Of a stretch of DNA of 64,000 bases, positions 5,333 through 39,841 are shown piece after piece. Below the pieces are notes generated by a model, which saw only the letters and a program-made list of their open reading frames with translations, was not told the origin of the DNA and ran no database searches. Where the stretch lies: sequence record PQ306573.1; one strand, given 5' to 3'. The translations under genes and the position numbers were made by a program. The stretch comes from Escherichia phage vB_EcoM_PTE-Eco05. Each line of letters opens with the position of its first letter. Position 1 is the stretch's first letter.

Positions 5333-5968
5333 ATGAAAACTACACCAATCACTATCGCTATTGACGCAATCGTAAAACAAGCTTCATCTCTTGCCACTAT
5401 GGCTAAAGTAATTAGTCAAAACCCTGCTCGGTATAATGCTATTCTTGAAACTCTTCGTCGCCCTGGACTGAGTAATTATGAAAGTCGTGTAATTATTACA
5501 GGTGTTGGTAAGAACGCTAATATCGCAACTAAAGCTTCCGAGACTTTTGCTTCACTAGGTATTCCTAGCATGTATTTGAACACTGGGCATTATTCTCATG
5601 GTGACGCAGGATTTATTGCACCTAATGATGTATTAGTTCACATCAGCCGTTCTGGTAAGACTGAAGAAATGATAGGTGTTGCTAAACATCTTCGTATGAT
5701 TCGTCCTCAGGTTAAACAGATTCTGTTACATTGTAACCCTGACATTCCACAAGAATACGAAGCTCTTTTTGATTATACGTTCTGTACTGGTATCGCGGTA
5801 GAAGTTGACGAGAACTCTTTAGCTCCGACAATGTCTACTACATTGTTGTTAGCGCTTATCGATACGTTCGCTATCAACCTTTCGTCTGAACGTGGATTTA
5901 CCTCTAATGATTTCCTTAAGTTCCATCCAGGCGGTGCACTAGGTGCCATGTTACGAGGCGAACAATGA
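5333..5968 (+). CDS. SIS-domain sugar-phosphate isomerase (KpsF/GutQ arabinose-5-phosphate isomerase-like)
   Basis: 211 aa; SIS-type Rossmann pattern (VIITGVGKN, HISRSGKTEE) and C-terminal HPGGALG typical of KpsF/GutQ-type isomerases. Confidence 0.7.
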   Translation: MKTTPITIAIDAIVKQASSLATMAKVISQNPARYNAILETLRRPGLSNYESRVIITGVGKNANIATKASETFASLGIPSMYLNTGHYSHGDAGFIAPNDVLVHISRSGKTEEMIGVAKHLRMIRPQVKQILLHCNPDIPQEYEALFDYTFCTGIAVEVDENSLAPTMSTTLLLALIDTFAINLSSERGFTSNDFLKFHPGGALGAMLRGEQ

Positions 5969-6149: not shown

Positions 6150-7835
6150 ATGAAAAAAGCTGTTATTCTTGGTGCTGGACTGGCAACTCGTTTGTATCCA
6201 ATAACGCATCATATTCCTAAGGTGCTTGTTAACTATAAACAAGACACTATTCTGAGCAATTTGTATACAATTTATTCTGACCTTGGCGCAGATGAAATTA
6301 TTGTAGTAGTTCATTCAAAATTTGCTGAAACTGTTCGAGCTTATTGTGAGCAAGAAGGGTTCAATGTGACTATTCGTACAGTTGATGAAGCGTATGGTTC
6401 TGCTTATGCTCTTGCTAAATTACACAAAGATTTAGACGGCCATAATGTAATTGTTAACTGGTGTGATATTATTCCCGATTTTGGTTCATGGTCTTGGAAT
6501 GTTAACGCAATCTATGTTAAGGGTGATGAATGTCGGTATAATTTCGATGGTGAAAATATCACTAATGTAGGTGAAACAGGCGGTAATGTTGTAGGAATTT
6601 ATCAGTTCAAAGACTGGGAATTCTATATGGGTTCTACCGATGAGGAAATTCATGAATACTGCAAAGGACGTGATTTCGTAGAATTCCTTTACGGCAGCAC
6701 ATTCAATAAATCAGAGCTTATGAATCTAATTGATTTAGGTGATATGCCTAAACTTGAAAAGGCCCATGAAGTTCGTGAACTGAACCGTAGTTTTAATGCA
6801 GTTGAAATTGGCGAAGAAACTGTAACTAAATTCGCATTAACCGAACAGGGTCGAGCTCTTCAGAAAGATGAGATTTCGTGGTATTTGAAAGTGAAATCAG
6901 ATTCAGTTCCTCAGTTAGTTTCTGTTAATGAAAATAACTTTGAAATGGAACGCATTAAAGGTAAGCCGGCATTTGAATATATTAAATCAAAATCAAGTCT
7001 TGCTCGTCCACAAATTATTGATGCAATTTTAGATGCACTGAAATTCAGCACAGACACTTATTTTGTAAGTCCTGAAACTGTTCGTCGTGATTTCACTAAA
7101 GAATTCTATACGAAAGTTATTGATCGTTGTGAAAGCATTCAACCATTGATTGATTCATTTGGTAAAATCACACATGTGAACTACACTAAGATTGGACGTC
7201 TGAAGCCAATGCTGAAACAAGCTTTAGAACACCTTATTCGTTATCATAACCGTTCTCAGGGACAGTACTCTGTTATTCATGGTGACCCGAACTTCAGTAA
7301 TACTATGATTACTGATAACGGCGAAGTCAAGTTTATCGACCCTCGTGGATATTTTGGCGAAACCAAGATTTACGGGCCAAAATTGTATGATGAAGCTAAA
7401 GTGCTTTACGCTGTTTCAGGTTATGATGAATTCAATGCTAATCCGACCTGGGGACAGTTTACTATTGATGAAACAACTTGTAATGTGACTATTAACATCA
7501 ATCCATTAGTTTACAAATATGGAAAGATGAGTTCGTTTAACGAGTATCATCATTTGGCAGTGGCAATTATCTGGATTGCATTAGGTGGTTATTTCAAGAA
7601 TAATCCACTTAAAGCGGTAGCCGCATATTATAAAGGTATGGAACTTCTGACTAAGCAATTACGTAATATGGGCCGTGTACTTCAAGACGGCTCTATTAGT
7701 TATGACGTAGCAGAACCTGTAACGGCTACTCTGATTACAAAAAATCCTGGTAAATGGGTACTAACTGATAAAGAAACTGGTGTTTCCTATCGTCCAATCG
7801 GTGGCGATATCACTCATCAATGGGAACGAATCTAA
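6150..7835 (+). CDS. Bifunctional sugar-1-phosphate nucleotidyltransferase (N-terminal) / APH-choline-kinase-fold sugar kinase (C-terminal)
   Basis: 561 aa; N-terminal MKKAVILGAGLATRLYPIT..PK.LV nucleotidyltransferase signature; C-terminal HGDPNFSNTMI...FIDPRGYFG kinase catalytic loop (Brenner HGD..N plus D). Confidence 0.7.
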   Translation: MKKAVILGAGLATRLYPITHHIPKVLVNYKQDTILSNLYTIYSDLGADEIIVVVHSKFAETVRAYCEQEGFNVTIRTVDEAYGSAYALAKLHKDLDGHNVIVNWCDIIPDFGSWSWNVNAIYVKGDECRYNFDGENITNVGETGGNVVGIYQFKDWEFYMGSTDEEIHEYCKGRDFVEFLYGSTFNKSELMNLIDLGDMPKLEKAHEVRELNRSFNAVEIGEETVTKFALTEQGRALQKDEISWYLKVKSDSVPQLVSVNENNFEMERIKGKPAFEYIKSKSSLARPQIIDAILDALKFSTDTYFVSPETVRRDFTKEFYTKVIDRCESIQPLIDSFGKITHVNYTKIGRLKPMLKQALEHLIRYHNRSQGQYSVIHGDPNFSNTMITDNGEVKFIDPRGYFGETKIYGPKLYDEAKVLYAVSGYDEFNANPTWGQFTIDETTCNVTININPLVYKYGKMSSFNEYHHLAVAIIWIALGGYFKNNPLKAVAAYYKGMELLTKQLRNMGRVLQDGSISYDVAEPVTATLITKNPGKWVLTDKETGVSYRPIGGDITHQWERI

Positions 7836-13154: not shown

Positions 13155-13488
13155 TCTCGATGATTTGAATCTAGAAATCGTTGATGAATCCCCTTCTTCG
13201 GAAGGGGAGGACATTCGCAAAGAACGAGTGTTTAATGAATCTCTTAAAATTATCCGTTCAGCAATGGAAAATGTCATTCAAGAGATTCTGATTACACTTG
13301 AAGACGGTTCCCATCATATAGTCTATATTACAAAACTAGACTGGGTCGATGGTAAAATCGTAATGGACTTTGCAGTTCTTGACCAGGACAGAAAAGCAGA
13401 ACTTGCACCACATGTTGAAAAATGTGTTACAATGCAAGTACAACAAGCTTTTAATGAACGAACCAAGAAAAAATTTAAATTCTTTTAA
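13147..13488 (+). CDS. 40: gp40-like protein (head vertex assembly factor position)
   Basis: Track ORF 13126..13488 trimmed to the ATG overlapping the uvsX end; about 113 aa; synteny uvsX-40-41. Confidence 0.55.
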   Translation: MNNLDDLNLEIVDESPSSEGEDIRKERVFNESLKIIRSAMENVIQEILITLEDGSHHIVYITKLDWVDGKIVMDFAVLDQDRKAELAPHVEKCVTMQVQQAFNERTKKKFKFF

Positions 13489-13497
13489 GGAGTTATC

Positions 13498-14940
13498 GTG
13501 GTAGAAATTATTTTGTCTCATCTAGTATACGACCAGGCTTATTTTTCTAAGGTCTGGCCTTATATGGATTCTGAGTATTTTGAGCGTGGACCGGCAAAAA
13601 ACGTCTTTAAAATTATAAAGAGCCACGTTAACGAATATAATGCAATGCCATCTATCAATGCATTAAAGGTGGCTTTAGATAACAGTTCTTTAACTGAAGC
13701 CGAATATAAAGGAACTTCAGACCTAATTGAAAAATTGGCTGATACTCCTGAAGACCACGAATGGTTGGTTAAAGAAACTGAGAAATATGTCCAGCAAAAA
13801 GCGATGTATAATGCTACGTCCAAAATCATTGAGATTCAGTCTAATGCTGAACTACCTCCAGAACAACGTAACAAGAAAATGCCTGACGTAGGAGCTATTC
13901 CTGATATTATGCGTCAAGCACTTTCAATTTCGTTTGATAGTTATGTTGGACATGACTGGATGGAAGACTACGAAGCACGCTGGCTTTCTTATCTAAATAA
14001 AGCACGTAAGGTCCCGTTCAAATTAAACATTCTGAATAAAATCACTAAAGGTGGTGCTGAAACCGGTACACTAAACGTTTTAATGGCAGGTGTTAACGTC
14101 GGTAAATCTTTAGGCCTTTGTTCACTTGCTGCAGATTATCTTCAAACAGGTCATAATGTTCTTTATATTTCCATGGAAATGGCTGAAGAAGTTTGTGCTA
14201 AGCGTATAGATGCAAACATGCTTGACGTATCACTCGATGATATCGATGATGGTAACGTATCTTATGCTGAATATAAAGCCAAGATGGAAAAATGGCGTTC
14301 AAAATCCACATTAGGACGTTTAGTAGTTAAACAGTATCCTACTGGTGGAGCTAATGCTAATACATTTCGTGCATTGCTTAATGAGTTAAAACTTAAGAAG
14401 AACTTTGTGCCATCTGTAATCATGGTTGATTACTTAGGTATTTGTGGGTCTTGTCGTATCAGAGTTTACACTGAAAATAGCTACACATTAGTTAAAGCTA
14501 TCGCAGAAGAACTTCGTGCATTAGCAGTAGAATCTGAAACAGTTCTATGGACTGCAGCTCAAGTAGGACGTGCAGCATGGGATGCTTCAGACATGAACAT
14601 GAGTGATATTGCAGAATCAGCAGGTTTACCAGCAACGGCAGATTTCATGTTGGCCGTAATTGAAACCGAAGAACTTGCACAAGCTGAACAACAACTTATC
14701 AAACAAATCAAATCACGATACGGTGATAAGAATAAGTGGAATAAATTCCTGATGGGTGTACGTAAAGGCAACCAGAAATGGATTGAGATTGAGCAAGAAG
14801 GCATGAACACACCTAACACAGTAAATGAAAACGCAGGTGCTCAGATGCGTCAGGCAGAGGTGAATCGTACGGAACGCGTAGGTAAAGCCAAAGCAACACG
14901 TGCTGACCTAGATAGCTTAGCCAATGAGTTAAAATTTTAA
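13498..14940 (+). CDS. 41: Replicative DNA helicase gp41 (DnaB-like)
   Basis: 480 aa; GTG start after aaggag RBS; Walker A GVNVGKSLGL; DnaB-family motifs. Confidence 0.92.
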   Translation: MVEIILSHLVYDQAYFSKVWPYMDSEYFERGPAKNVFKIIKSHVNEYNAMPSINALKVALDNSSLTEAEYKGTSDLIEKLADTPEDHEWLVKETEKYVQQKAMYNATSKIIEIQSNAELPPEQRNKKMPDVGAIPDIMRQALSISFDSYVGHDWMEDYEARWLSYLNKARKVPFKLNILNKITKGGAETGTLNVLMAGVNVGKSLGLCSLAADYLQTGHNVLYISMEMAEEVCAKRIDANMLDVSLDDIDDGNVSYAEYKAKMEKWRSKSTLGRLVVKQYPTGGANANTFRALLNELKLKKNFVPSVIMVDYLGICGSCRIRVYTENSYTLVKAIAEELRALAVESETVLWTAAQVGRAAWDASDMNMSDIAESAGLPATADFMLAVIETEELAQAEQQLIKQIKSRYGDKNKWNKFLMGVRKGNQKWIEIEQEGMNTPNTVNENAGAQMRQAEVNRTERVGKAKATRADLDSLANELKF

Positions 14941-14945
14941 TAAAA

Positions 14946-14968
14946 AGGAGACTTCGGTCTCCTTTCGG
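14946..14968 (+). terminator. Rho-independent terminator after gene 41 (aggagac ttcg gtctcct)
   Basis: 7-bp stem, UUCG loop, followed by ttcggggttt. Confidence 0.6.
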
Positions 14969-14969
14969 G

Positions 14970-14999
14970 GTTTACATCTTCCTCTAGGCATGATATGAT
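14970..14999 (+). promoter_or_regulatory. Early-type promoter (GTTTACA, about 17 bp, TATGAT)
   Basis: -35 GTTTACA and -10-like element upstream of ORF 15029; spacer tcttcctct is complementary to the downstream RBS agaggaa. Confidence 0.5.
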
Positions 15000-15028
15000 G
15001 TACTTACACCAACCAAGAGGAAAACATT

Positions 15029-15403
15029 ATGAATATGTCTCAAGCAATTTTTACTGCAATCACCGAAAACACAACTGTTGAAGTAGTTTCTCCGCTGGCA
15101 ACCTACGTTATTCTTGCTCCTAAAACTATTGTATCTCGTATGGAAAACATGGGCAAACGTATCGTACAAATTGTTGGAGCCGGAAATCAAAAACTTGATT
15201 ATCTGCGAACCATCAAAGCTTATGAACATTTCCAGCTCGAAAAAGGTTCTCCTATCCAGGTAGAACTCGTAAATGGTGATATCGTTCGAGCAATGTTCCA
15301 TCATTTCTATGCATTGAATGACCCATCTAAAGCGGTTCGTTTGATTGCATATGACGCAAACCAAAACGAAATCAACGCAGATATATCTAAATTACGTTTT
15401 TAA
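15029..15403 (+). CDS. Hypothetical protein (124 aa)
   Basis: ATG with agaggaaaa RBS. Confidence 0.55.
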   Translation: MNMSQAIFTAITENTTVEVVSPLATYVILAPKTIVSRMENMGKRIVQIVGAGNQKLDYLRTIKAYEHFQLEKGSPIQVELVNGDIVRAMFHHFYALNDPSKAVRLIAYDANQNEINADISKLRF

Positions 15404-15436
15404 GTTTACTTCTCCAGTAGTTGTGTTATTATAGAC
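15404..15436 (+). promoter_or_regulatory. Early-type promoter (GTTTAC, spacer, TATTATAGACC)
   Basis: Part of a recurring GTTTAC(A), about 17 bp, TAtAGaCCTATCA architecture; embedded in a 14-bp inverted repeat. Confidence 0.5.
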
Positions 15437-15458
15437 CTATCAACTACTGGAGAACAAA

Positions 15459-15776
15459 ATGAAAACCATCGATTGTAAAGCAGAATTTAAGATTTTTTAT
15501 CACGGTTCAAGTAGTTCAGCTAACATCGAAAACATGCTTTGTCCTCCTGAAGAAACAGGAGTTCTGTCTGAAACTGGACGTAAGAAAAACTTGGATCGTG
15601 TATTCTTTACTGAAGATATCGGTTTAGCAAAGATTTATGCAGGACGAGCAGCACGCTCTTATGGAGGTGAACCACGTCTCTATCGAGTAATTTCTCCGGT
15701 AGATGTAGTTCAAATGAATGATACTAAAGGTGCTACAGTTTATCACGCTGAATGGGCATTTTGCGAGGAAATATGA
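15459..15776 (+). CDS. Hypothetical protein (105 aa)
   Basis: ATG 5 nt after ggagaa RBS. Confidence 0.55.
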   Translation: MKTIDCKAEFKIFYHGSSSSANIENMLCPPEETGVLSETGRKKNLDRVFFTEDIGLAKIYAGRAARSYGGEPRLYRVISPVDVVQMNDTKGATVYHAEWAFCEEI

Positions 15777-15961
15777 GCAAATTAACTAAAGTTACTTTTA
15801 TTGGCTGGTTTAAAAGCGGTGAGATGTTCACTAAAGATATCATGTTATCAGGTGATCGTGAAGAAATCGAGTGGGTTGCGGTACAACTTGCTGAAGTGAA
15901 CAACGCATTAGTTAAAGCATTTGTTAATGACGAGAAAGTTTTCGAAGCAGATTTTCGATAA
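15773..15961 (+). CDS. Hypothetical protein (62 aa)
   Basis: Track ORF 15752..15961 trimmed to the ATG overlapping the upstream stop, with gaggaa RBS. Confidence 0.45.
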   Translation: MSKLTKVTFIGWFKSGEMFTKDIMLSGDREEIEWVAVQLAEVNNALVKAFVNDEKVFEADFR

Positions 15962-15974
15962 TTTTAAAATAACT

Positions 15975-16006
15975 GTTTACAAGCCCCACATACTGTGTTA
16001 CTATCT
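15975..16006 (+). promoter_or_regulatory. Early-type promoter (GTTTACA, spacer, TTACTAT)
   Basis: GTTTACA 52 nt upstream of ORF 16033. Confidence 0.45.
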
Positions 16007-16032
16007 TTCTATCAACTACAGAGGAAATTGAA

Positions 16033-16401
16033 ATGAAAAAATTAATCGCTTTAGCAATGGTATTTGGATTAACCGGATGTGGTGCTCATGGCTTTATCCC
16101 TAATAACGTTGGCCAACTGATTTACAATCCGAATGTTAAACAATATGAACAACCTAAAGTTGAAGTGGAAGACCCGGTTACTGTAGGTAATCGAATGATT
16201 CAAGCTGATGCTCATGCTCAACGTTATCGTGATTCTGATACTGTAGCATTGTCAAAAGAACAACGCGTTAAAGAACATTGTCTACAGGCTACTGAAATCG
16301 CATTCATTCGCTATGTTGAAACAACTGGTAAAGAGCCTACCCAGAAACAAATCGCGAATAACTACGTCCAGTGTATTGAACGTTTAAACAAATTTAATTA
16401 A
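16033..16401 (+). CDS. Predicted lipoprotein (122 aa)
   Basis: Signal peptide with lipobox LTGC (MKKLIALAMVFGLTGCG). Confidence 0.6.
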   Translation: MKKLIALAMVFGLTGCGAHGFIPNNVGQLIYNPNVKQYEQPKVEVEDPVTVGNRMIQADAHAQRYRDSDTVALSKEQRVKEHCLQATEIAFIRYVETTGKEPTQKQIANNYVQCIERLNKFN

Positions 16402-16404
16402 TTG

Positions 16405-16440
16405 GTTTACACCAAAGTTAAAATAAGATACTATAAACAT
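16405..16440 (+). promoter_or_regulatory. Early-type promoter (GTTTACA, spacer, TACTATAAA)
   Basis: GTTTACA and -10-like element upstream of ORF 16463. Confidence 0.45.
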
Positions 16441-16462
16441 AACAAATCAAGAGGAAATTAAC

Positions 16463-16711
16463 ATGGAATTATTCGTAGCTAGTTCAGTAGCAGTTTTAAT
16501 CGCAGGTATTGGTTCAATCATCATTTACATGTTGCCTTGGGTAATCGCACTTATTCGTGGCACAAAAAGCACAACAGCAATCTTCTTTGTATCTTTGCTC
16601 TTTAACTGGACGATGATTGGTTGGATTGGAACTTTAATTTGGTCTATCGTTGCCGAAAAGAAATCTGCTCAGCAGCCTCAACAAGTAATTATTATTCGCG
16701 AAAAAGAATAA
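16463..16711 (+). CDS. Small inner-membrane protein (82 aa, two predicted TM helices)
   Basis: Hydrophobic segments VAVLIAGIGSIIIYMLPWVIALI and IFFVSLLFNWTMIGWIGTLIWSIV. Confidence 0.55.
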   Translation: MELFVASSVAVLIAGIGSIIIYMLPWVIALIRGTKSTTAIFFVSLLFNWTMIGWIGTLIWSIVAEKKSAQQPQQVIIIREKE

Positions 16712-16715
16712 ACTT

Positions 16716-16750
16716 GTTTACATTATAGATGGACTATAGTATAGTAGTCC
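16716..16750 (+). promoter_or_regulatory. Early-type promoter (GTTTACA, spacer, TATAGTAGTCC) overlapping palindrome GGACTA/TAGTCC
   Basis: Seen directly; same extended -10 block recurs at about 36781, 37293 and 57015. Confidence 0.5.
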
Positions 16751-16774
16751 TATCAAATCAACTAAGGAGTTAAA

Positions 16775-17068
16775 ATGAAAAAGTTATCATTGGCAGCAAT
16801 CTTACTTGCAGTATCATGTGCACCGGCTCCAGTTACGGCAGGTTATGATAAAGACCTCTGTGAGTGGTCAATGACTGCAAATCAAGAAGATGTTGAACAA
16901 CAAATCTTCTCTGATATCATGAACATCACTAAACGAGACCGTCCTAATATGGTTAATAAAGTTGTTGAACAACTTAAGTCTGGCGGTATCATGCAGTACA
17001 ACTATGTTTTGTATTGTGACCCTAATTTCGATAACAAAGATATCGTAACCGAAATCACAGGTGAATAA
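16775..17068 (+). CDS. sp: Secreted periplasmic protein, Spackle (sp)-like superinfection exclusion factor
   Basis: 97 aa with cleavable signal peptide (MKKLSLAAILLAVSCAPAPVTA); size and position between 41 and 61 match T4 sp; identity from memory, not verified. Confidence 0.55.
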   Translation: MKKLSLAAILLAVSCAPAPVTAGYDKDLCEWSMTANQEDVEQQIFSDIMNITKRDRPNMVNKVVEQLKSGGIMQYNYVLYCDPNFDNKDIVTEITGE

Positions 17069-17069
17069 T

Positions 17070-17720
17070 ATGATTTATTACATGCACAAAAACGCACCAT
17101 TTAAATATGGTAAATTTCCTAATGCACAATGTTATAATATAACGCCGAATGAAAATAATAACGGATACCATATTGGTGTAATTTTTGTAATTGTTAAAGA
17201 TAACGAAATTGTTGCCTGGGCAGATTTTAAAGGTACAACATATGATGTTAATCCTGTGCCTTTCACATATTACAATATAATGGATTTGGCATATGATTAT
17301 AATTGGTTTAATCATGACACGTTGGCTCATATTGAAGGTGTAGGATTTGACATCTCTTATTCTAGCTATTCATTATGTCCTATGAGCCGAGCTCACGGTA
17401 AAGATGTATCATATCTTTCAATTCGGAAACGTGTAAACTTCAAACGCAGTACAGAGTATGTTGGTGGACTCTTTGTTAAAGATAATAAAATAACCCGTAT
17501 TAGTTATCCTTTAAGTGTAGGTCAAAAAGATGTTGATGTTGATTTAGACTTAACTGAAAGTAACATTAATCGTATTGCTTCTGTATATTTTGATATCGAT
17601 GAAAAAATTGTAGTGTGTGGATACGAATTACCACCTGAAGAAAAGGCTGAAACAATTGAAGTCGAATTAGAAATTTCTGTTGATGACCAAATATTTAATG
17701 CATTTATGAATCGAGGTTAA
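17070..17720 (+). CDS. Hypothetical protein (216 aa)
   Basis: Track ORF starts at a GTG at 17061; ATG at 17070 follows aggtga RBS. Confidence 0.5.
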   Translation: MIYYMHKNAPFKYGKFPNAQCYNITPNENNNGYHIGVIFVIVKDNEIVAWADFKGTTYDVNPVPFTYYNIMDLAYDYNWFNHDTLAHIEGVGFDISYSSYSLCPMSRAHGKDVSYLSIRKRVNFKRSTEYVGGLFVKDNKITRISYPLSVGQKDVDVDLDLTESNINRIASVYFDIDEKIVVCGYELPPEEKAETIEVELEISVDDQIFNAFMNRG

Positions 17721-17721
17721 A

Positions 17722-17919
17722 ATGACTACTGCAATTTGCACTGGTTCTAAAATTAGTGTTTTTACAAGTTTTGAAGATTATGAAGTTGTTTCAAAACACC
17801 AATGCCATATTAGCGTAAAAGCTAATGATGGTGTAATTTGGAATATTCCACATTATGAAGACACTACATATGAAGTCACAGATGCGAACGGTGATAAAGC
17901 GATCTTTGTGATTGATTAA
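17722..17919 (+). CDS. Hypothetical small protein (65 aa)
   Basis: ATG immediately after upstream stop. Confidence 0.45.
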   Translation: MTTAICTGSKISVFTSFEDYEVVSKHQCHISVKANDGVIWNIPHYEDTTYEVTDANGDKAIFVID

Positions 17920-17938
17920 ATATACTCAGGAGGTACCT

Positions 17939-18406
17939 ATGGGTATTATTAACACTGCAATAGATTCAGTTTATGCATATAAGTTTATTCGACTAATGCA
18001 AAAACCTTTTACAGAATGGAAAGCGTACGAAGCCAAAATAATCGACGAACGTGGAAGTGTTCTTAAACGTCCTTCTACTCCTGAAGAGAAAGCGGCTTAT
18101 ACACCTTTTCATGCTTCAGTTCGTTCAATGAAGCGAATGATGAGCACTGTTCCGGGTCTTAATGGAATGGCCTCAATGATGTCTGCTTGGAGTGCTGTAG
18201 CTTCACGCTATAACATTACTGAAGAACAACAGAAAGAAATATTTAAAGAACTCCCTTTATTTGAGGATATGGTTGCTGGTGATTCAGGCGGCAGTCCTCA
18301 AGTTATTGCATCAGGAACAACTACAGGTGCAGTCGTAAATAAAGGTCCAGAACAAATTCCTTCCAAGAAAAGAAAGCGAATTAAAGTAAATATTAATAAG
18401 TTGTGA
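17939..18406 (+). CDS. Hypothetical protein (155 aa)
   Basis: Track ORF 17912..18406 trimmed to the ATG preceded by strong RBS caggaggtacct. Confidence 0.5.
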   Translation: MGIINTAIDSVYAYKFIRLMQKPFTEWKAYEAKIIDERGSVLKRPSTPEEKAAYTPFHASVRSMKRMMSTVPGLNGMASMMSAWSAVASRYNITEEQQKEIFKELPLFEDMVAGDSGGSPQVIASGTTTGAVVNKGPEQIPSKKRKRIKVNINKL

Positions 18407-18445
18407 TAAGATGGCCTTATTAATTTAAGGCCTCTGGAGAATACT

Positions 18446-19468
18446 ATGGCTGAATGGATAGATAATGAATTTGCTTATCGTGCGTTTTCTCACCTACCTC
18501 GTTTTAGACAAATCAATAATTCAAGCACATTTAAATTAACATTTCGTTGTCCAGTTTGTGGCGACTCCCAGACAGATGCAATGAAAGCTCGCGGTTGGTA
18601 TTATGGCGGTACTCCTGGTAATGTACATTGCTATAACTGTCAATACCACAATACAATTTCCGGATACTTAAAGGAGTATGATGAAGAGCTTTATCGCGAA
18701 TATCTAATGGAAGTTCGTAAAGAAAAAGCTAGAATGGAACCAAAGATTGAAAAGGTTCCTGAACATAAACCAGAACCGGAGAAAAAGACTATAAATTCTT
18801 TGCCGTCTTGTTCTCGTCTGGACAAGTTGCCTGAAGAGCATCCTATTGTGAAATATGTTAAGTCTCGGTGTATTCCTAAAGAATCATGGAACAGATTATG
18901 GTTCACATTAGAATGGCCTAAATTGGTCAACAAGATTCAACCTGGTACGTATAAGAAAGAGATTCCCGAACCACGTTTAGTGATTCCTATTTTTAATAAA
19001 GATGGGAAGGCCGAGTCATTCCAAGGACGTGCACTTCGTAAAGATGCTCCTCAGAAATATATCACTATTAAAGCGTTTGAGTCTGCAACAAAAATTTATG
19101 GTGTTGAACGTGTTAAGGAAGGGGACGTCTGGGTAATGGAAGGCCCTATTGATAGTTTATTCATACCAAATGCAATCGCTATTACAGGCGGCTCGATAGA
19201 TTTAGATGTGGTACCATTTAAAGAACGTCGGGTATGGGTAATGGATAACGAACCTAGGCATCCGGATACTATAGCTCGCATGAAGCGATTAGTTGATGCA
19301 GGCGAACGTGTCATGTTCTGGGACCGAGCTCCATGGAGATCAAAGGATGTGAACGATATGGTAATGAAAGAAAATGCAACACCACAAGAAATTTTAGAAT
19401 ATATGAAACAGAATATTTCAAGTGGGTTGCATGCTAAAATGAGATTATCTCGTTATTCGAAGATTTAA
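18446..19468 (+). CDS. 61: DNA primase gp61
   Basis: 340 aa; N-terminal zinc ribbon CPVCGD...CYNCQYH; Toprim-like core; position after gene 41 region. Confidence 0.88.
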   Translation: MAEWIDNEFAYRAFSHLPRFRQINNSSTFKLTFRCPVCGDSQTDAMKARGWYYGGTPGNVHCYNCQYHNTISGYLKEYDEELYREYLMEVRKEKARMEPKIEKVPEHKPEPEKKTINSLPSCSRLDKLPEEHPIVKYVKSRCIPKESWNRLWFTLEWPKLVNKIQPGTYKKEIPEPRLVIPIFNKDGKAESFQGRALRKDAPQKYITIKAFESATKIYGVERVKEGDVWVMEGPIDSLFIPNAIAITGGSIDLDVVPFKERRVWVMDNEPRHPDTIARMKRLVDAGERVMFWDRAPWRSKDVNDMVMKENATPQEILEYMKQNISSGLHAKMRLSRYSKI

Positions 19469-19662
19469 ACAAGCCCTATAATAGCAAAGGCTAAATCAAC
19501 TACAGTATCCAATGGAACAGAAGGAACTATAATACCATGGGCAACTAACAATGGTGCAATCCCGAAGTTCCATGAAATAATGCCACCTACAACTATTGCA
19601 GCGATAGCAGTTTTCTTTTTATTGCCTTTAATAGCGTTGATTAACGATGGAAGTTTAAACAT
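19465..19662 (-). CDS. Small hydrophobic membrane protein (65 aa) on the opposite strand
   Basis: Strong RBS aaggagat 6 nt upstream on the minus strand; hydrophobic sequence. Confidence 0.45.
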   Translation of the reverse strand: MFKLPSLINAIKGNKKKTAIAAIVVGGIISWNFGIAPLLVAHGIIVPSVPLDTVVDLAFAIIGLV

Positions 19663-19751
19663 AATATCTCCTTAGTTACCTATTATTTATTACGCTTTAT
19701 AAAATTAATGTTAGAATTAAACTCTCTTATACTGAATTGAAAGGAAAAATA

Positions 19752-20273
19752 ATGGCGCACTTTAACGAATGTTCACAACTTATTTCTGGTGTTGATAAAG
19801 CAGAAGAAGCTTATTTTAATGCTCTGATTCACGAAGATAAAGACCCACTGCAGGTAATGCTTGATATGCAGAAATCTTTACAGGTTCGTCTGGCAAATGA
19901 CAAGCCTGAACATAACAAACATCCTGATGAATTAGCTACCGCCGGTGATGTTGTTGATTGGCTGCGTAATCAGAAAGATTATATTGATGATGAATTCCGT
20001 GAACTGCTGACTTCACTTGGCGGTATGAGCAATGGTGAAAAAGCTGCCAGCAGTGTATGGAAGCCATGGAAAGCACAACATGCTGAATATCGTAATCGTC
20101 GTATCGATGAACTGTCTCCTGAAGACCAGCTCGAAATTAAATTCGAAATGATTGATATTCTGCACTTCGTTCTGAACATGTTCCAAGGTCTGGGTCTTTC
20201 TGCTGAAGAAATCTTTAAACTGTATTACCTGAAAAACCAACACAACTTTGAACGCCAGGATAATGGTTACTGA
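19752..20273 (+). CDS. 56: dCTP pyrophosphatase gp56 (MazG-like)
   Basis: Track ORF 19737..20273 trimmed to ATG after aaggaaaaata; 173 aa; helical MazG-like sequence; T4-syntenic position. Confidence 0.75.
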   Translation: MAHFNECSQLISGVDKAEEAYFNALIHEDKDPLQVMLDMQKSLQVRLANDKPEHNKHPDELATAGDVVDWLRNQKDYIDDEFRELLTSLGGMSNGEKAASSVWKPWKAQHAEYRNRRIDELSPEDQLEIKFEMIDILHFVLNMFQGLGLSAEEIFKLYYLKNQHNFERQDNGY

Positions 20274-20318: not shown

Positions 20319-20555
20319 ATGGGTGGTTATGTAAACATCAAAACCTTTACGCGTCCTGCTGGTGAAGGTAAAGAAGTTAAAGGTATGGAAGTTTCTGTGC
20401 CGTTTGAGATTTATTCAAACGAACATCGGATTGCAGATTCTCATTACCAAATCTTTCCGTCAGAAAAGGCAGCTTATTCTGATGTCGTTTCTGATGCAGC
20501 AACTTGGAAAACTAAGAACGCTGCAATGTTTACCCCTACGCCAGTAAGTGGTTAA
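20319..20555 (+). CDS. soc: Small outer capsid protein Soc
   Basis: 78 aa; ...GYVNIKTF... resembles T4 Soc N-terminus as I recall it; late promoter upstream and strong terminator downstream. Confidence 0.6.
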   Translation: MGGYVNIKTFTRPAGEGKEVKGMEVSVPFEIYSNEHRIADSHYQIFPSEKAAYSDVVSDAATWKTKNAAMFTPTPVSG

Positions 20556-20562
20556 ATAATTT

Positions 20563-20591
20563 AAGGAATCCTTCGGGATTCCTTTTTTTTT
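20563..20591 (+). terminator. Rho-independent terminator (aaggaatcc ttcg ggattcctt followed by T8)
   Basis: 9-bp stem, UUCG loop and an 8-9 nt T tract seen directly. Confidence 0.85.
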
Positions 20592-22137: not shown

Positions 22138-22719
22138 ATGATATGTCAATCTGAACTTCAAGAACGCGAATATCTCGCAGCACTAATTGATGATAAATTC
22201 ACTAAACAAGAACAAAACATTCTCTGGGCTTGCACCGATTCTAAGGAAGACCCGGATTTCCACTATGAATTAGACCATCTTGTTCGTAAGCATATGACTT
22301 CTACAGTACCAGTAGAACTCTACCGCGGTGTAACTCCAGAAGAAGTAGAACGTCTTTCACTTCTTTCTGTTGGATGCCATTGGTCTCCTGGACGAGTAAC
22401 ATCGTTCACAACTGATTTCAGTACAGCTCGTCAATTCTCTGGGAGTTGGGAATATCAGACGTATACTATTCTTAGTCTCAGGAATGCTCCATTCATTTTT
22501 GATTACTACCAAAACATGGTTAACATTGTACTCGCCGGAAAGAACCCTAAGCATGTTATAGAAGAAAAGCGTGTTGACGTCCTAGATATGATTGAATCTG
22601 AACAAGAGTACATGGTCTCAGGTATCTCTAGATTTGAGATTGTGGAAATTGAAGACTTAGAATATGACCCTTTATCTCGATTATACAAAATCATTCATTT
22701 GAAAATGTTGAATTTTTAG
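22138..22719 (+). CDS. Mono-ADP-ribosyltransferase (ModA/ModB-like), copy 1
   Basis: 193 aa; R-S-ExE architecture: YRG, S-T-A-R, and EQEYMVSG. Confidence 0.55.
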   Translation: MICQSELQEREYLAALIDDKFTKQEQNILWACTDSKEDPDFHYELDHLVRKHMTSTVPVELYRGVTPEEVERLSLLSVGCHWSPGRVTSFTTDFSTARQFSGSWEYQTYTILSLRNAPFIFDYYQNMVNIVLAGKNPKHVIEEKRVDVLDMIESEQEYMVSGISRFEIVEIEDLEYDPLSRLYKIIHLKMLNF

Positions 22720-22752
22720 TGTACAAACTCTTCCGATGATGATACTATAGAC
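22719..22752 (+). promoter_or_regulatory. Early-type promoter (GTGTACA, spacer, TACTATAGACC)
   Basis: Variant -35 with the conserved TATAGACCTATCA block. Confidence 0.4.
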
Positions 22753-22776
22753 CTATCAACCAGAGGAGAAACCAAA

Positions 22777-27558: not shown

Positions 27559-27590
27559 GTTTACTTCTCCTCCGGTTTTGATATTATAAC
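27559..27590 (+). promoter_or_regulatory. Early-type promoter (GTTTAC, spacer, TATTATAAC); spacer ttctcctc complementary to downstream RBS gaggagaa
   Basis: Seen directly; 8-bp perfect complement between 27565..27572 and 27602..27609. Confidence 0.5.
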
Positions 27591-27613
27591 CATATCAACC
27601 AGAGGAGAATAAT

Positions 27614-28081: not shown

Positions 28082-28138
28082 CAATTAATGTTTAGACGTT
28101 CATTGGCAGAACAAGTTGATTTTATTTTGCTAAAATGA

Positions 28139-28172
28139 TGTACAACAACTATGGTCTATGATACTATAGACC
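28139..28172 (+). promoter_or_regulatory. Early-type promoter (TGTACAA, spacer, TACTATAGACC)
   Basis: Conserved TATAGACCTATCA block; partial palindrome ggtctat/atagacc. Confidence 0.4.
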
Positions 28173-28195
28173 TATCAAAACAAGAGGAGAATATT

Positions 28196-29506: not shown

Positions 29507-31324
29507 ATGATTAAAAATGAAATTAAGGTATTGTCAGATGTAGAACATATTAAGAAACGTAGTGGTATGTATATTGGTTCTTCTGCTAAAGAAGCACATG
29601 AGCGTTTTTTGTTTGGTAAATATCAACAAGTTGAATATGTTCCTGGTCTGGTTAAATTAATCGATGAGATTATTGACAACTCGGTTGATGAAGCTATTCG
29701 TACATCATTTAAGTTTGCAAATAAAATTGATGTGCAAATTAAAAATAATCAAGTTTCGGTGGAAGATAACGGACGTGGTATTCCTCAAGGTTTAGTTACC
29801 GACCAAACAGGTGAACAAATTCCTGGGCCTGTAGCAGCCTGGACTATTCCAAAGGCTGGTGGTAACTTTGGTGATGATTCTGAACGCAAGACTGGTGGTA
29901 TGAACGGCGTCGGGAGTAGTTTAACTAATATCTTCTCTACGTTGTTTACAGGCATCACGTCAGATGGCGAAAATGAAATCACTGTTAACTGTTCAAACGG
30001 AATGGAAAACAAATCATGGTCTTCTAAGAAATCTAAAGGTAAAGGCACTAAAGTAATCTTCACTCCTGATTTCACTTCATTTGAAGAGCATAATTTATCT
30101 CAAATTTATTTAGATATTACTTTAGACCGACTTCAAACATTGGCAGTCGTTTATCCTGATATCAAGTTCACATTTAATGGTAAAAAGGTTGATGGTAATT
30201 TTAAACGATTTGCTAAACAATTTGGTGAAGATAACATCATTCAAGAAAATGATAAAGTCTCTATAGCATTCACAACATCACCCGATGGCTTCCGTCATTT
30301 AACTTATGTGAATAACATCCATACTAAAAATGGTGGTCATCATGTTGAATGTGTAATGGATGATATCTGCGAACATCTTTTACCGGGTATTAAAAAGAAA
30401 TATAAGGGTATTGAAGTCACTAAAGCTCGTGTTAAAGAATGCCTCACAATGTTGATGTTTATTAGAGACATGAGCAACATGCGTTTTGATTCTCAGACTA
30501 AAGAACGTTTAACGTCAACGTATGGTGATATTCGTAATCATATCCAATTAGATGCTAAAAAAATTGCTCAGGCACTTCTTAAAAACGAAGCCTTGATTAT
30601 GCCTATTGTTGAAGCAGCATTAGCTCGTAAATTGGCAGCAGAAAAGGCTGCAGAAACTAAAGCAGCTAAAAAGGCAACTAAAGCTAAGGTTCATAAGCAT
30701 ATTAAAGCTAACCAATGTGGTAAAGATGCAGATACGACATTGTTCTTAACAGAAGGTGATTCTGCAATTGGTTATCTCATTGATGTTCGTGACCGTGAAC
30801 TACACGGTGGATTCCCATTACGTGGTAAGGTGATGAATAGCTGGGGTATGTCATATGCTGATATGATGAAGAACAAAGAGCTCTTCGATATCTGTGCTAT
30901 CACAGGTCTTATTCTTGGTGAAAAGGCAGAGAATACGAACTATCGTAATATTGCAATTATGACCGATGCCGATCACGACGGTCTTGGAAGTATTTATCCT
31001 GCTTTGCTTGCTTTCTTTAGTAATTGGCCCGAATTGTTTGAACAAGGACGTATTCGCTTTGTTAAAACACCTGTAATTATTGCACAAATTGGCAAAACTC
31101 AAAAATGGTTTTATACTGTAGCTGAGTATGAAGAAGTTAAAGATACACTGCCTAAGCATAGTATTCGATACATCAAGGGATTAGGCTCCCTTGAAAAGTC
31201 AGAGTATCGTGAAATGATTCAGAACCCTGTGTACGACGTAGTTAAACTTCCTGAAAATTGGAAAGAACTCTTTGAAATGTTGTTGGGTGATGATTCAGAA
31301 CTTCGTAAAGAATGGATGTCCTAA
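29507..31324 (+). CDS. 39: DNA topoisomerase II large subunit, unsplit gp39 (GyrB-like ATPase plus Toprim plus C-terminal segment)
   Basis: 605 aa; GHKL ATPase N-terminus, Toprim LFLTEGDSA and MTDADHDG, C-terminal YIKGLGSL...ELFEMLLGD (GyrB tail) all in one ORF. Confidence 0.9.
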   Translation: MIKNEIKVLSDVEHIKKRSGMYIGSSAKEAHERFLFGKYQQVEYVPGLVKLIDEIIDNSVDEAIRTSFKFANKIDVQIKNNQVSVEDNGRGIPQGLVTDQTGEQIPGPVAAWTIPKAGGNFGDDSERKTGGMNGVGSSLTNIFSTLFTGITSDGENEITVNCSNGMENKSWSSKKSKGKGTKVIFTPDFTSFEEHNLSQIYLDITLDRLQTLAVVYPDIKFTFNGKKVDGNFKRFAKQFGEDNIIQENDKVSIAFTTSPDGFRHLTYVNNIHTKNGGHHVECVMDDICEHLLPGIKKKYKGIEVTKARVKECLTMLMFIRDMSNMRFDSQTKERLTSTYGDIRNHIQLDAKKIAQALLKNEALIMPIVEAALARKLAAEKAAETKAAKKATKAKVHKHIKANQCGKDADTTLFLTEGDSAIGYLIDVRDRELHGGFPLRGKVMNSWGMSYADMMKNKELFDICAITGLILGEKAENTNYRNIAIMTDADHDGLGSIYPALLAFFSNWPELFEQGRIRFVKTPVIIAQIGKTQKWFYTVAEYEEVKDTLPKHSIRYIKGLGSLEKSEYREMIQNPVYDVVKLPENWKELFEMLLGDDSELRKEWMS

Positions 31325-31340
31325 GCTCCTTCGGGAGCTT
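31324..31340 (+). terminator. Stem-loop (agctcc ttcg ggagct) after gene 39, weak T tract
   Basis: 6-bp stem with UUCG loop, followed by cattttaatttt. Confidence 0.45.
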
Positions 31341-31366
31341 CATTTTAATTTTAATAAGGCTTAATT

Positions 31367-34995: not shown

Positions 34996-35922
34996 ATGTA
35001 CAATATCAAATGCTTGTCCAAAGAAGAACAGTTAGAAGCTTACAGACTGGTTGAATCAGATCAATGGACCCGTCGGGAAATTGCTGATTACTTCGACATT
35101 TCAACAGATACTCTTCGTAAGATTGTTAAGAATTTTAAAGCCGAAGATGAGACTTCGAAAGTTGAAGAAGTTCCAGAAAATGATGAACCTATTATCGGCG
35201 GCCATCGTCCTGAAATCGTATGGAATGCGTCATCTAAATTTATTTCAATTATTGAAGGACGCGTAGCATACAATGCGACTCCATCAAGTCATGCAAATTT
35301 TGAAGAAATTAAAGCTAATCTGGTCGCAGGAAACCTTAGTAAAGCTGTCGAACTTATTAACATCAAGAAAGCTATTAGTAAGTTTGTTGACGGTAATGTT
35401 GTTATTGAAGGTGGTAGTTTATTTTATCAAGGTATAGAAATTCGTTCAGGACTGGTTAATCGTATTATTGATTCTATGGAAAAAGGCGAAGACTTTAAAT
35501 TCTATCTGCCGTTCCTTGAAAACCTGTTAGAAAACCCAAGCGAAAAAGCTGTACAACGTTTATTCGACTTCTTGGTTGCAAACGATATTGAAATCACTGA
35601 AGATGGGCATTTCTATGCGTGGAAAGTAGTTCGTAAGGACTATTTAGACTGCTATAGTGGTACATTTGATAACTCCCCAGGTAAAGTTGTTTCAATGCCT
35701 CGTACTCGAGTTAACGACGATGATACTCAAACCTGTTCTCGCGGTCTCCATGTTTGTGCTAAATCTTATATTCGCCACTTTGGTTCAAGCTCAGATAAAG
35801 TTGTGAAAGTTAAAGTTCATCCACGTGATGTTGTATCCATCCCGGTTGACTATGGTGATGCTAAGATGCGTACATGTCGTTATGAAGTAATTTCAGACGT
35901 TACTGAATTGTTTGCAGAATAA
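34996..35922 (+). CDS. rIIB: rIIB protein
   Basis: 308 aa immediately downstream of rIIA; size and synteny. Confidence 0.75.
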   Translation: MYNIKCLSKEEQLEAYRLVESDQWTRREIADYFDISTDTLRKIVKNFKAEDETSKVEEVPENDEPIIGGHRPEIVWNASSKFISIIEGRVAYNATPSSHANFEEIKANLVAGNLSKAVELINIKKAISKFVDGNVVIEGGSLFYQGIEIRSGLVNRIIDSMEKGEDFKFYLPFLENLLENPSEKAVQRLFDFLVANDIEITEDGHFYAWKVVRKDYLDCYSGTFDNSPGKVVSMPRTRVNDDDTQTCSRGLHVCAKSYIRHFGSSSDKVVKVKVHPRDVVSIPVDYGDAKMRTCRYEVISDVTELFAE

Positions 35923-35927
35923 TAATT

Positions 35928-35950
35928 GGGGACTTCGGTCCCCTTTTTTC
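35928..35950 (+). terminator. Rho-independent terminator (ggggac ttcg gtcccc followed by T6)
   Basis: Seen directly after rIIB. Confidence 0.8.
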
Positions 35951-36267: not shown

Positions 36268-36744
36268 ATGAAGGTTAAGATCGCTGATACTGCTCGGTAC
36301 TCGTTGAAACAAGATCCAGGTCAAATAAAAGAAGACGTTGTTCGACGTTGTAAGGTTGCAGTCTTTGCAGAGTATGTAGTAGCAAATTGGCTAGACGGAT
36401 ATGTTAATAAAGGTAATGAAGACGTAGAAGACCCGTACACGTATGCATGGGACGTTTTAGCTCATCCTAAGTACTGTGGTCTACGCGTAGAAGTAAAGAC
36501 CCATCAGATGGATTCGAAATGGATTTCGGTTACCACAGGATACAGTGGTGATTATCCGGGTGGTAATGGAATCAATATAGGGCCCTTCTTGAACCATCGA
36601 GTCGCAGATTGCATTATTATATTAGATGTCAAAGAAACCTCACCTGACGTCTTCTCTTATTCTATAAAGTTCGTGGGAGACCATGAAGACCTAAAGAAAA
36701 TCGTCCGCAAGAGCAACTACAACGGGTGGTATCTTCATCTTTAA
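36268..36744 (+). CDS. Hypothetical protein (about 158 aa); start uncertain
   Basis: Track ORF 36124..36744 overlaps the upstream gene; first ATG downstream of the upstream stop is 36268. Confidence 0.4.
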   Translation: MKVKIADTARYSLKQDPGQIKEDVVRRCKVAVFAEYVVANWLDGYVNKGNEDVEDPYTYAWDVLAHPKYCGLRVEVKTHQMDSKWISVTTGYSGDYPGGNGINIGPFLNHRVADCIIILDVKETSPDVFSYSIKFVGDHEDLKKIVRKSNYNGWYLHL

Positions 36745-36756
36745 TTTCATAAAAGT

Positions 36757-36790
36757 GTTTACAACTAAGTAGGACTATGATATAGTAGTC
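36757..36790 (+). promoter_or_regulatory. Early-type promoter (GTTTACA, spacer, TATAGTAGTCC) with palindrome AGGACTA/TAGTCCT
   Basis: Seen directly. Confidence 0.5.
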
Positions 36791-36812
36791 CTATCTAAAA
36801 GAAGATAACATC

Positions 36813-37076
36813 ATGAAATTTAAATTTTTCTACGCAAAACATAAAGTAACAGGCGAATTTGTTTCAATGTGCAACACTGCAGATGACGAAGGGATGATTT
36901 ATACCCATTTGGGTCTATCTCATTGGGACTCGGACGTGCCTTATATGTCATCTGAAGCCGAAATAACTCGTTTAGTTAACGGACATATGAACGACCATTT
37001 TGGTATTATTCTTTCTAAAGACCTTAAAGAGGTTATCAACAAAGGATATATGGAACTCGCGGAAGTTGAGATATGA
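36813..37076 (+). CDS. Hypothetical protein (87 aa)
   Basis: ATG after aagaagataacatc. Confidence 0.5.
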   Translation: MKFKFFYAKHKVTGEFVSMCNTADDEGMIYTHLGLSHWDSDVPYMSSEAEITRLVNGHMNDHFGIILSKDLKEVINKGYMELAEVEI

Positions 37077-37268
37077 GCTCTAAAATGTGGATAGGAATAT
37101 GGTTGCTTAGTATCCCAATGATTTGTATAATATTTTCAATTGTGTTGAGGTACTTATGAAAAATGCACTTCTTATTGTACTAAGAACAATTTGTGATGCG
37201 TGGTTTTACATCGCATGTTCGTTCACTGGAACATGGTTGGCTTTAACATATTTTAATGTAATTTAATT

Positions 37269-37302
37269 GTTTACAACAAGGTAGGATTATGGTATAGTAG
37301 TC
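37269..37302 (+). promoter_or_regulatory. Early-type promoter (GTTTACA, spacer, TATAGTAGTCC) with palindrome GTAGGA/TCCTAC
   Basis: Seen directly. Confidence 0.5.
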
Positions 37303-37326
37303 CTACTGAAACATGAGGAACACAAA

Positions 37327-37527
37327 ATGGCTAAGCTTTTTAAAGATGTTGAAATTGGTGAAAAATTTGTTCTGAATAACGGTCAGCAGCTTATTCGTGT
37401 AGCTTCTATCGCCGGACAAACTCATAACTGTATCGCCCCAACGTGTTGGACTCGATTCTTTATTGAAGATGACACTGAATGTTTAACTGTTGAAGAGCTT
37501 TTTGAACGTTCTGATATAGCCGAATAA
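37327..37527 (+). CDS. Hypothetical small protein (66 aa)
   Basis: ATG after catgaggaacacaaa RBS. Confidence 0.5.
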   Translation: MAKLFKDVEIGEKFVLNNGQQLIRVASIAGQTHNCIAPTCWTRFFIEDDTECLTVEELFERSDIAE

Positions 37528-37529
37528 AA

Positions 37530-37560
37530 TTGTACAAACTCTTGAGAGCAGAGTATAATG
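37530..37560 (+). promoter_or_regulatory. Early-type promoter (TTGTACA, 18 bp, TATAAT) inside palindrome gagagc/gctctc
   Basis: Seen directly upstream of ORF 37606. Confidence 0.45.
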
Positions 37561-37605
37561 CTCTCATGGATTACAAAAAAACATTAATCAATTGAGGAAA
37601 TTAGC

Positions 37606-39721: not shown

Positions 39722-39797
39722 GTGCCCTAGCCTTAGGATTTCTCGGTGCAATAGCTGCACTAGTGATTTGGCTGTATTGGTTGGACAAACATGATTA

Positions 39798-39817
39798 GGG
39801 AGCTTCGGCTCCCTTTT
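39798..39817 (+). terminator. Rho-independent terminator (gggagc ttcg gctccc followed by ttttg)
   Basis: Seen directly after gene 52. Confidence 0.7.
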
Positions 39818-39841
39818 GTGCATTTTTTTCCTCACAAAACA

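Follow-up and report, generated by a model that had tools for sequence, protein, structure and literature searches.

The PeSL (promoter-early stem-loop) cassettes of T4-like phages (Arbiol et al. 2010, PMC2839356; Comeau et al. 2014, PMC4122927) are the closest described systems to the promoters analysed here. In these cassettes, a stem-loop containing G–T pairs is located between the -35 and -10 elements of an early promoter or overlaps the -10, and one stem-loop that was tested terminated transcription (PMC2839356). PeSLs sit between a stop codon and the next Shine-Dalgarno sequence and ATG, and they are repeated in hyperplastic regions (PMC2839356, PMC4122927). It has been proposed by their authors that they attenuate transcription arriving from upstream and take part in modular shuffling (PMC2839356, PMC4122927); furthermore, PeSL mini-circles with crossover points in the stem-loop have been demonstrated (PMC2839356). 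The stems of T4 and PST follow the scheme AGNA-loop-TCNT, the denB-ndd region being given as an example (PMC4122927).

A promoter inside a hairpin is also known from the translational control of T4 e, soc, 49 and I-TevI (reviewed in PMC3014915). In these genes, as in the promoters described below, the promoter is positioned inside the 5´ arm or behind it, and as a result long transcripts fold and short ones do not.

The DNA under study is a stretch of 64,000 nucleotides from Escherichia phage vB_EcoM_PTE-Eco05 (PQ306573.1), called the window in what follows. Compared with Mosigvirus genomes, the window shows 98–100% identity. Bases 14000-20000 match many Escherichia phages of this genus (RB69-like Tevenvirinae) over their full length at 98–99% identity, and the 301 bases around the A1 site match phage NBG1 at 100% identity. 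Early genes 45, 44, 62, regA, 43, 42, uvsX, 41, dmd, imm, sp, 61, 56, modB, modA, srd, dda, dexA, 39, rIIA, rIIB, denB and ndd are located on the + strand, and the tail-fibre genes 34-37 on the – strand. No Rfam family matched at its gathering score across positions 1-64000 of the window.

Shared blocks and the early-promoter consensus

The initial annotation had described four promoters sharing one sequence block and a second family of five sites with a block of its own. Both families proved exact, with coordinates that needed shifting by at most 1–2 nt. The 13-mer TATAGTAGTCCTA is found on the + strand at 16740, 36781, 37293 and 57016, exactly four copies in the window; with up to two mismatches there are 6 matches against 1.33 expected, a number reached in 0 of 100 shuffles. 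The second block, TATAGACCTATCA, is present in five exact copies (15430, 22746, 28165, 39868 and 56568), and its observed count was likewise reached in 0 of 100 shuffles. The two sets are designated A-type (A1–A4) and B-type (B1–B5) sites, and their coordinates are collected in Table 1.

For the recognition of early promoters, a -35 element GTTTAC/TTTACA, a spacer of 16–18 nt and a -10 hexamer TAnnnT (A at position 2, T at position 6) were used. All nine sites have this arrangement, with GTTTAC(A) or a one-base variant at -35, 17–18 nt before the -10 hexamer, and with a Shine-Dalgarno sequence and ATG 20–45 nt downstream. At A1, the consensus scan gave TTTACA-17-TATAGT with 10 of 12 matches. 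The orientation also agrees, since the genes directly downstream of the sites are sp and modA, together with ORFs from the denB-ndd region and ORFs that follow gene 32.

The A sites have TATAGT as their -10 hexamer; the B sites have TAnTAT, which begins three bases upstream of the block as first delimited. Once the -10 registers are aligned, the two families continue identically with AG(T/A)CCTATCA. The consensus of the 20 recognisable early promoters in the window is taTGn-TAttAT-Ag.CcTATCaA. RB69 early promoters favour C at -3 to -1 (Nolan et al. 2006, PMC1524935), and the agreement of the window consensus with this preference supports early-promoter identity. By consensus and position, the A and B sites are identified as sigma-70, T4-type early promoters of an RB69-like (Mosigvirus) phage. 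Judged in the same way, the shared block is the -10 hexamer plus a discriminator/start-site consensus (AG.CCTATCA) common to most of the 20 early promoters. It had been taken for an extended -10, which it is not; the real TGn element sits in the hairpin loop and immediately precedes the hexamer in A2 (TGA), A3 (TGG) and A4 (TGT), TG being absent from A1 (TAG).

An involvement of MotA or of AsiA-associated polymerase had also been considered in the initial annotation. MotA-dependent middle promoters were defined by a box (a/t)(a/t)(a/t)TGCTT(t/c)A centred at -30. None of the nine sites has such a box, the -35 region being GTTTACA, which indicates early rather than middle promoters and speaks against a MotA/AsiA role.

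The T4-type early promoter consensus (Nolan et al. 2006, PMC1524935; Hinton 2010, PMC2988021) is shared in its GTTTAC -35, TGn and -10 hexamer, in the A-rich upstream sequence, in the extra conserved positions beyond the sigma-70 elements and in the RB69-type C at -3 to -1. However, this consensus explains the right-hand block only, and not the complementary segment in the spacer of the A promoters.

Table 1. Early promoters, embedded hairpins and related features of the window and of relatives (A-type stem lengths include G·U pairs)
Feature	Position	Strand	Promoter elements	Hairpin or stem	Fold energy (sense RNA)
A1, early promoter of sp (spackle, CDS 16775-17068)	16716-16754	+	-35 GTTTACA 16716-16722; -10 TATAGT 16740-16745	left arm 16728-16737; loop 16738-16743; right arm 16744-16754, one bulge; 10 bp	-11.1 kcal/mol, z -2.67
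A2, early promoter after denB, upstream of 87-aa ORF (36813-37076)	36757-36794	+	-35 36757-36763; TGn 36778-36780; -10 36781-36786	36769-36778/36785-36794; 10 bp, 2 G·U	-13.2 kcal/mol, z -3.89
A3, early promoter upstream of 66-aa ORF (37327-37527)	37269-37307	+	-10 37293-37298	37280-37290/37297-37307; 11 bp, 3 G·U; block end TCCTAC pairs with GTAGGA	-13.6 kcal/mol, z -2.92
A4, early promoter upstream of small ORF (ATG 57055, end 57303)	56992-57030	+	GTTTATA; -10 57016-57021	57003-57013/57020-57030; 11 bp, 2 G·U	-16.0 kcal/mol, z -5.91
B1, early promoter	15404-15454	+	-10 TATTAT 15427-15432, then AGACCTATCA	15410-15454; perfect 11-bp repeat CTCCAGTAGTT/AACTACTGGAG	-21.5 kcal/mol, z -5.2
B2, early promoter of modA	22719-22768	+	-10 TACTAT 22743-22748	weak stem CTCTTC/GAGGAG (with G·U)	-7.7 kcal/mol, z -0.86 (not significant)
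B3, early promoter	28138-28177	+	-10 TACTAT 28162-28167	28153-28160/28165-28172; 8 bp, core GGTCTAT/ATAGACC	-9.5 kcal/mol, z -1.2
B4, early promoter	39842-39880	+	-10 TATTAT 39865-39870	no embedded hairpin	z about 0
B5, early promoter after gene 32	56542-56580	+	-10 TAGTAT 56565-56570	weak interrupted stem	z +0.76
P27582, early promoter	27559-27609	+		27565-27609; spacer TTCTCCTCCGGTT pairs with AACCAGAGGAGAA, including the Shine-Dalgarno sequence	-19.2 kcal/mol, z -5.1
P37554, early promoter upstream of ndd	37530-37570	+	-10 TATAAT	GAGAGC/GCTCTC around the -10 (window 37540-37570)	-14.6 kcal/mol
ndd-promoter relative, L004	6754-6804
ndd-promoter relative, L010	3303-3353
ndd-promoter relative, L136 (T4)	7167-7215
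CTTCGG-loop hairpins, each within	2501-2540; 13177-13216; 14945-14984; 20549-20588; 31309-31348; 35905-35944; 38253-38292; 39785-39824; 56477-56516	+		GC-rich, CTTCGG (UUCG) loop

Hairpins embedded in the promoters

The short spacer segments reported as complementary to the block are present at all four A promoters (GGACTA 16731-16736, AGGACTA 36771-36777, GTAGGA 37281-37286 and ATAGG 57004-57008). They had been regarded as different from one promoter to the next; they belong instead to one conserved segment (..TAGGACTAT..) that occupies the same register in all four, and by sequence this left arm lies outside the promoter consensus. When G·U pairs are counted, the arms extend beyond the lengths first described, giving stems of 10, 10, 11 and 11 bp in A1–A4. 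The loop is 6 nt long (G-n-TATA) and comprises part of TGn and the first four bases of the -10. The stems end 12–25 nt upstream of the Shine-Dalgarno sequence, which is not included at any of the four sites. A2 and A3 lie 512 bp apart, in the variable denB-ndd region.

The four hairpins differ in strength, from A1 as the least stable to A4, for which 0 of 200 shuffles were equally stable (Table 1). An inverted-repeat search, which at the settings used listed A3 and A4, gave arms of 10 nt with 90% complementarity for A4; the perfect 8-bp arms of A2 and the 6-bp arms of A1 were confirmed by reading and folding. Shuffling of the 17-nt spacers, scored by the contiguous run of pairs, yielded p = 0.054 (A1), 0.00085 (A2), 0.0006 (A3) and 0.00025 (A4), and the spacers of the other 16 promoters of the window pair with the A-type right arm over no more than 5 nt. 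A1 (16731-16750), the site on which the initial annotation was centred, is thus the weakest of the four and marginal when taken alone. On the – strand, a promoter-like TTGATT-17-TATAGT at 16761-16733 arises from the A1 palindrome and is probably fortuitous; it was rejected as an antisense promoter, being a by-product of the palindrome restricted to A1, with no equivalent at the other A sites.

Of the 20 early promoters, roughly half contain a strong embedded hairpin, and the rest are without one. The B-type sites are heterogeneous in this respect. The right arm of the B1 hairpin covers the Shine-Dalgarno GGAG of the ORF at 15459-15776, the weak B2 stem also reaches the Shine-Dalgarno sequence, and B3 scores 26.4 bits with the covariance model of the A family. 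A canonical UUCG-loop terminator lies upstream of B4 (within 39785-39824), and another lies upstream of B5 (within 56477-56516). At P27582, which belongs to neither family, 12 of 13 positions are paired. The stems of B1 and P27582 run from the spacer to the Shine-Dalgarno sequence and comprise 17 bp (-21 and -19 kcal/mol). A 3´ arm over the Shine-Dalgarno sequence is a feature of these two promoters and, more weakly, of B2 and P14994. As analysed from the layout, read-through RNA at B1 and P27582 would mask the ribosome-binding site and RNA from their own promoters would not, as at T4 e and soc, but here with early promoters.

The promoter upstream of ndd (P37554) represents a second family with relatives in other phages. 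Its stem is GAGAGC/GCTCTC in this phage, GGAGC/GCTCC in L004 and L010, and GGACC/GGTCC in T4, which amounts to two independent compensatory changes between this phage, the second group and T4. The T4 sp promoter is without a hairpin. According to the GenBank record of T4, a 14-bp stretch at L137 13301-13314 (T4 133300-133313) is inverted and complementary relative to the previous sequence version, a change said to 'correct' the early promoter Pe133295; this stretch falls inside a promoter-embedded hairpin (GGTAGAG.../...CTCTACC).

Covariation in the A family was followed in relatives gathered from viral contigs, from T4 and by covariance-model search, of which 18 distinct sequences were aligned. 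Most of them were found with a pattern that fixes the 13-mer, and in columns 25–37, where the right arm is fixed, changes are consequently visible in the left arm only. A relaxed scan of viral contigs with TTTACA-N17-TATAGTAG gave matches that were mostly due to chance, with one or two promoter-like sites among the matches listed. In the alignment, 87.2% of the cells are paired, against 28–65% when the 3´ partner is slid, and 6 of the 13 pairs have changed on both sides (18 relatives including the T4 dmd promoter), a result reached in 0 of 500 shuffles. The base of the stem reads ATC/GAT, ACT/AGT, ACC/GGT or ACCG/CGGT in different relatives, and pair 11-40 is U-A, U-G or C-G among the A3 orthologues (L004, L007, L010 and L011). 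The early promoter of T4 dmd, GCTGACAAGACTAT-GGTATA-GTAGTCTTGTCGG (-21.7 kcal/mol), pairs through AAGACTA/TAGTCTT plus GACA/TGTC; here AGGA/TCCT is replaced by AAGA/TCTT, the loop is kept and the outer arms differ.

The compensatory changes, together with a proportion of paired cells above the slid control, indicate that pairing is under selection and that the promoter consensus alone is insufficient. The suggestion that the arms covary under such selection was therefore upheld. The same relatives were examined for a lack of conservation of the arms and for arms that merely follow the promoter consensus, and the outcome favours selection on pairing.

The form in which the pairing acts was approached through asymmetric changes and strand-specific folding. 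All one-sided changes in the inner nine stem pairs produce G·U on the sense strand and none produces A·C. Antisense RNA folds worse than sense RNA at all four A sites; at A3, the energies are -13.6 (sense) and -6.3 kcal/mol (antisense, z -0.40). Among 33 hairpin-bearing promoters of the window and T4, G·U accounts for 57 of 362 sense pairs versus 18 of 297 antisense pairs, with mean fold energies of -12.0 and -10.0 kcal/mol, respectively (Wilcoxon p = 0.03). Antisense RNA folds better at P14994 and P27582 of the window, and the sense-strand bias is a tendency, not a rule. Folded as DNA, the A-type hairpins reach only -3.4 to -5.6 kcal/mol, with a z-score of only -0.8 for A3.

The wobble-only one-sided changes and the weaker antisense folds favour an RNA hairpin over the two other forms suggested in the initial annotation, a cruciform and a dimeric protein site. 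Both of these are unlikely, the former in view of the weak DNA hairpins, the latter in view of the strand-specific wobble and of the quite different palindromes found at other promoters of this phage. The pairing is more likely to occur in the sense transcript than in the non-template DNA strand, two forms that sequence alone cannot separate.

Promoter spacing, terminators and possible rearrangement

In the window, the distribution of the hairpins is related to the space available upstream. Of 9 promoters with a -35 no more than 15 nt from the upstream stop codon, 6 have a strong hairpin, against 0 of 7 promoters with longer gaps (p = 0.011). T4 alone shows the same trend, which is not significant (4/7 vs 4/13, p = 0.36), with gap lengths that are unreliable because the 35-aa ORF cut-off misses the very small ORFs of T4.

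The window also contains canonical GC-rich hairpins with a CTTCGG loop (Table 1). Most of them are followed by a T-run, several directly precede early promoters that have no embedded hairpin, often those with the longer gaps, and they are probably the true intrinsic terminators of the phage. Like these T4-type UUCG-loop terminators, the A-type hairpins are intercistronic and stand at the 3´ end of the upstream gene. However, the terminators of the window combine a GC-rich stem, a UUCG tetraloop and a T-run, and the A-type hairpins have none of these. Their stems are AU-rich and no U-tract follows them, the tails being ATCAAATC, ATCTAAAA, CTGAAACA and again ATCAAATC; moreover, a terminator scan at A1 returned no terminator-like site. 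A-type stems were accordingly ruled out as canonical intrinsic terminators, and with AU-rich stems and no U-tract their termination efficiency may be low or nil.

Possible signs of rearrangement are found at A2 and in one relative. When region 36300-37800 is compared with Tequatrovirus genomes, many of them match the denB part only up to query position 464 (about 36763), a break in homology that coincides with the -35 of A2. In other genomes, the A-type cassette precedes unrelated ORFs. A further observation comes from L010, where a 22-nt sequence, GATACTATAGACCTATCAACTT (a B-type -10/start-site core), is inserted at 5743-5764 upstream of an A-type promoter, between a stop codon and the -35. 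This half cassette is missing at the orthologous loci L004, L007 and L011, and its sequence suggests that it was left behind when promoter cassettes recombined.

Proposed role and comparison with known systems

Transcription from sigma-70 promoters starts 6–8 nt after the -10. By this geometry, the A1 transcript is predicted to begin near A16752, inside the right arm, so that RNA from the promoter itself would lack the left arm; the stem-loop would then be present only in read-through RNA coming from upstream promoters on the same strand. In the literature consulted, no start-site or 3´-end map was found for T4 or RB69.

The best explanation, and probably the right one, is that the promoter-embedded hairpin forms in vivo in read-through RNA, where its role would most likely be that of an attenuator or 3´-end barrier, and that the cassette provides homology for recombination. 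The spacer between -35 and -10 in a subset of promoters would have evolved complementarity to the block and, in other promoters, to the leader or the ribosome-binding site; in the window, complementary spacers would have arisen mainly where the -35 abuts the upstream stop codon. In read-through RNA, the hairpin may act on transcription as a weak attenuator, or on RNA stability as a 3´-end barrier that delimits and stabilises the upstream message. Such a barrier would insulate each small early-gene cassette, and where the hairpin covers the ribosome-binding site, the read-through RNA would in addition be silenced at the level of translation. Furthermore, the conserved cassette of roughly 50 bp could provide the homology through which small early genes are shuffled by recombination.

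Recombination also enters an unlikely but not negligible alternative, in which the structure works at the DNA level, as a cruciform or as a hairpin of the single non-template strand that promotes cassette recombination, and not in RNA. The PeSL mini-circles with their crossover points in the stem-loop (PMC2839356) agree with it, as do the half cassette beside the A-type promoter of L010 and the break in Tequatrovirus homology at the A2 -35, and G·T mismatches are tolerated in same-strand DNA hairpins too. The weak DNA folds described above argue against this proposal, and homologous recombination requires only the repeated cassette sequence and no hairpin; the DNA-level and RNA readings are nevertheless compatible with each other. 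That the complementarity is incidental is improbable. The four A-type promoters would then be copies of one duplicated cassette, with a left arm kept by descent or by the needs of the polymerase in the spacer, as might be suspected from a left arm of the same sequence and register in four copies, a right arm that is generic consensus, cassettes placed before unrelated genes in different genomes, and the marginal result for A1 alone. Common descent accounts poorly, however, for changes on both sides of 6 of the 13 pairs and for one-sided changes that all preserve wobble pairing in the inner nine, and B1, P27582, P37554 and many T4 promoters repeat the architecture with different arms.

The symmetry of the site allows another interpretation, to which a low probability is given: the palindrome TAGGACTA-N8-TAGTCCTA, centred on the -10, would be a double-stranded operator for a dimeric phage protein, either an early-promoter shut-off factor or a protein that targets recombination to the cassettes. 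Symmetric changes in both half-sites, as in T4 dmd, would mimic compensatory ones; the shut-off mechanism of T4 early promoters is reported as not understood (PMC2988021; PMC3014915), and published work has put forward a recombination protein with sequence specificity. A dimer binding duplex DNA would not, however, favour asymmetric changes that are all G·T on the sense strand in the inner nine pairs; the outer arm positions vary freely provided that they pair, unrelated palindromes occur at other promoters, and the site is present in only 4 of the 20 early promoters of the window. Least credible is a general role as translational switches of the T4 e/soc/49/I-TevI type, with the ribosome-binding site hidden in read-through RNA and translation confined to the transcript that starts at the promoter itself. 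Such a switch has a precedent (PMC3014915) and would suit B1, P27582, several T4 early promoters and, more weakly, B2 and P14994; all four A-type stems exclude the Shine-Dalgarno sequence by the distance given above.

Two extensions of the preferred reading, that of a hairpin in read-through RNA, are offered as long shots. The A-type palindrome might in addition be the operator of a phage factor that shuts off a subset of early promoters or targets recombination to it; in a milder form, embedded hairpins might generally replace intercistronic terminators, under selection, where the -35 abuts the upstream stop codon. If the operator were real, it would give a handle on the unexplained shut-off of early promoters in T4-type phages.

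Regarding known systems, the T4 genes e, soc, 49 and I-TevI share the placement of the promoter relative to the 5´ arm, but they use late or middle promoters and sequester the Shine-Dalgarno sequence or AUG, whereas the A-type hairpins leave the ribosome-binding site free. A literature search with the sequences of the shared blocks gave unrelated primer matches only.

The correspondence with PeSLs is much closer. It includes an early promoter with a stem-loop that overlaps the -10 or lies between it and the -35, G·T in the stems, and a cassette repeated several times per genome in nearly identical form, each copy preceding small variable early ORFs, with the denB-ndd region among the locations; the AGNA-loop-TCNT scheme of T4 and PST fits the AGGA...TCCT of the A-type stems. 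Some differences are apparent. RB49 and phi1 PeSL stems are polyG/polyC, one of them a shown terminator, in contrast to the AU-rich A-type stems without U-tract; and according to a figure legend in Comeau et al. (2014) the stems of PST/T4 are found 'just upstream' of the promoter, in contrast to the A-type right arm, which is the promoter's own discriminator/start-site block. RB69-like phages are not mentioned in either PeSL paper (PMC2839356, PMC4122927).

On sequence grounds, the A-type promoters are further examples of the PeSL cassettes already described: the element is real and not of a new kind, and no new kind of regulatory system is revealed by an architecture known from related phages. 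Three points are added to that description. The 3´ arm is the promoter's own conserved discriminator/start-site block; pairing is maintained by compensatory changes and by sense-strand wobble changes, a pattern that points to RNA; and the embedded hairpins of the window sit where a separate terminator has no room. For annotation and phage engineering, these cassettes of roughly 50 bp mark transcription-unit boundaries and likely recombination joints. The combination of promoter and stem-loop known from RB49/phi1, T4/PST and KVP40/nt-1 is in this way extended to the RB69-like phages.
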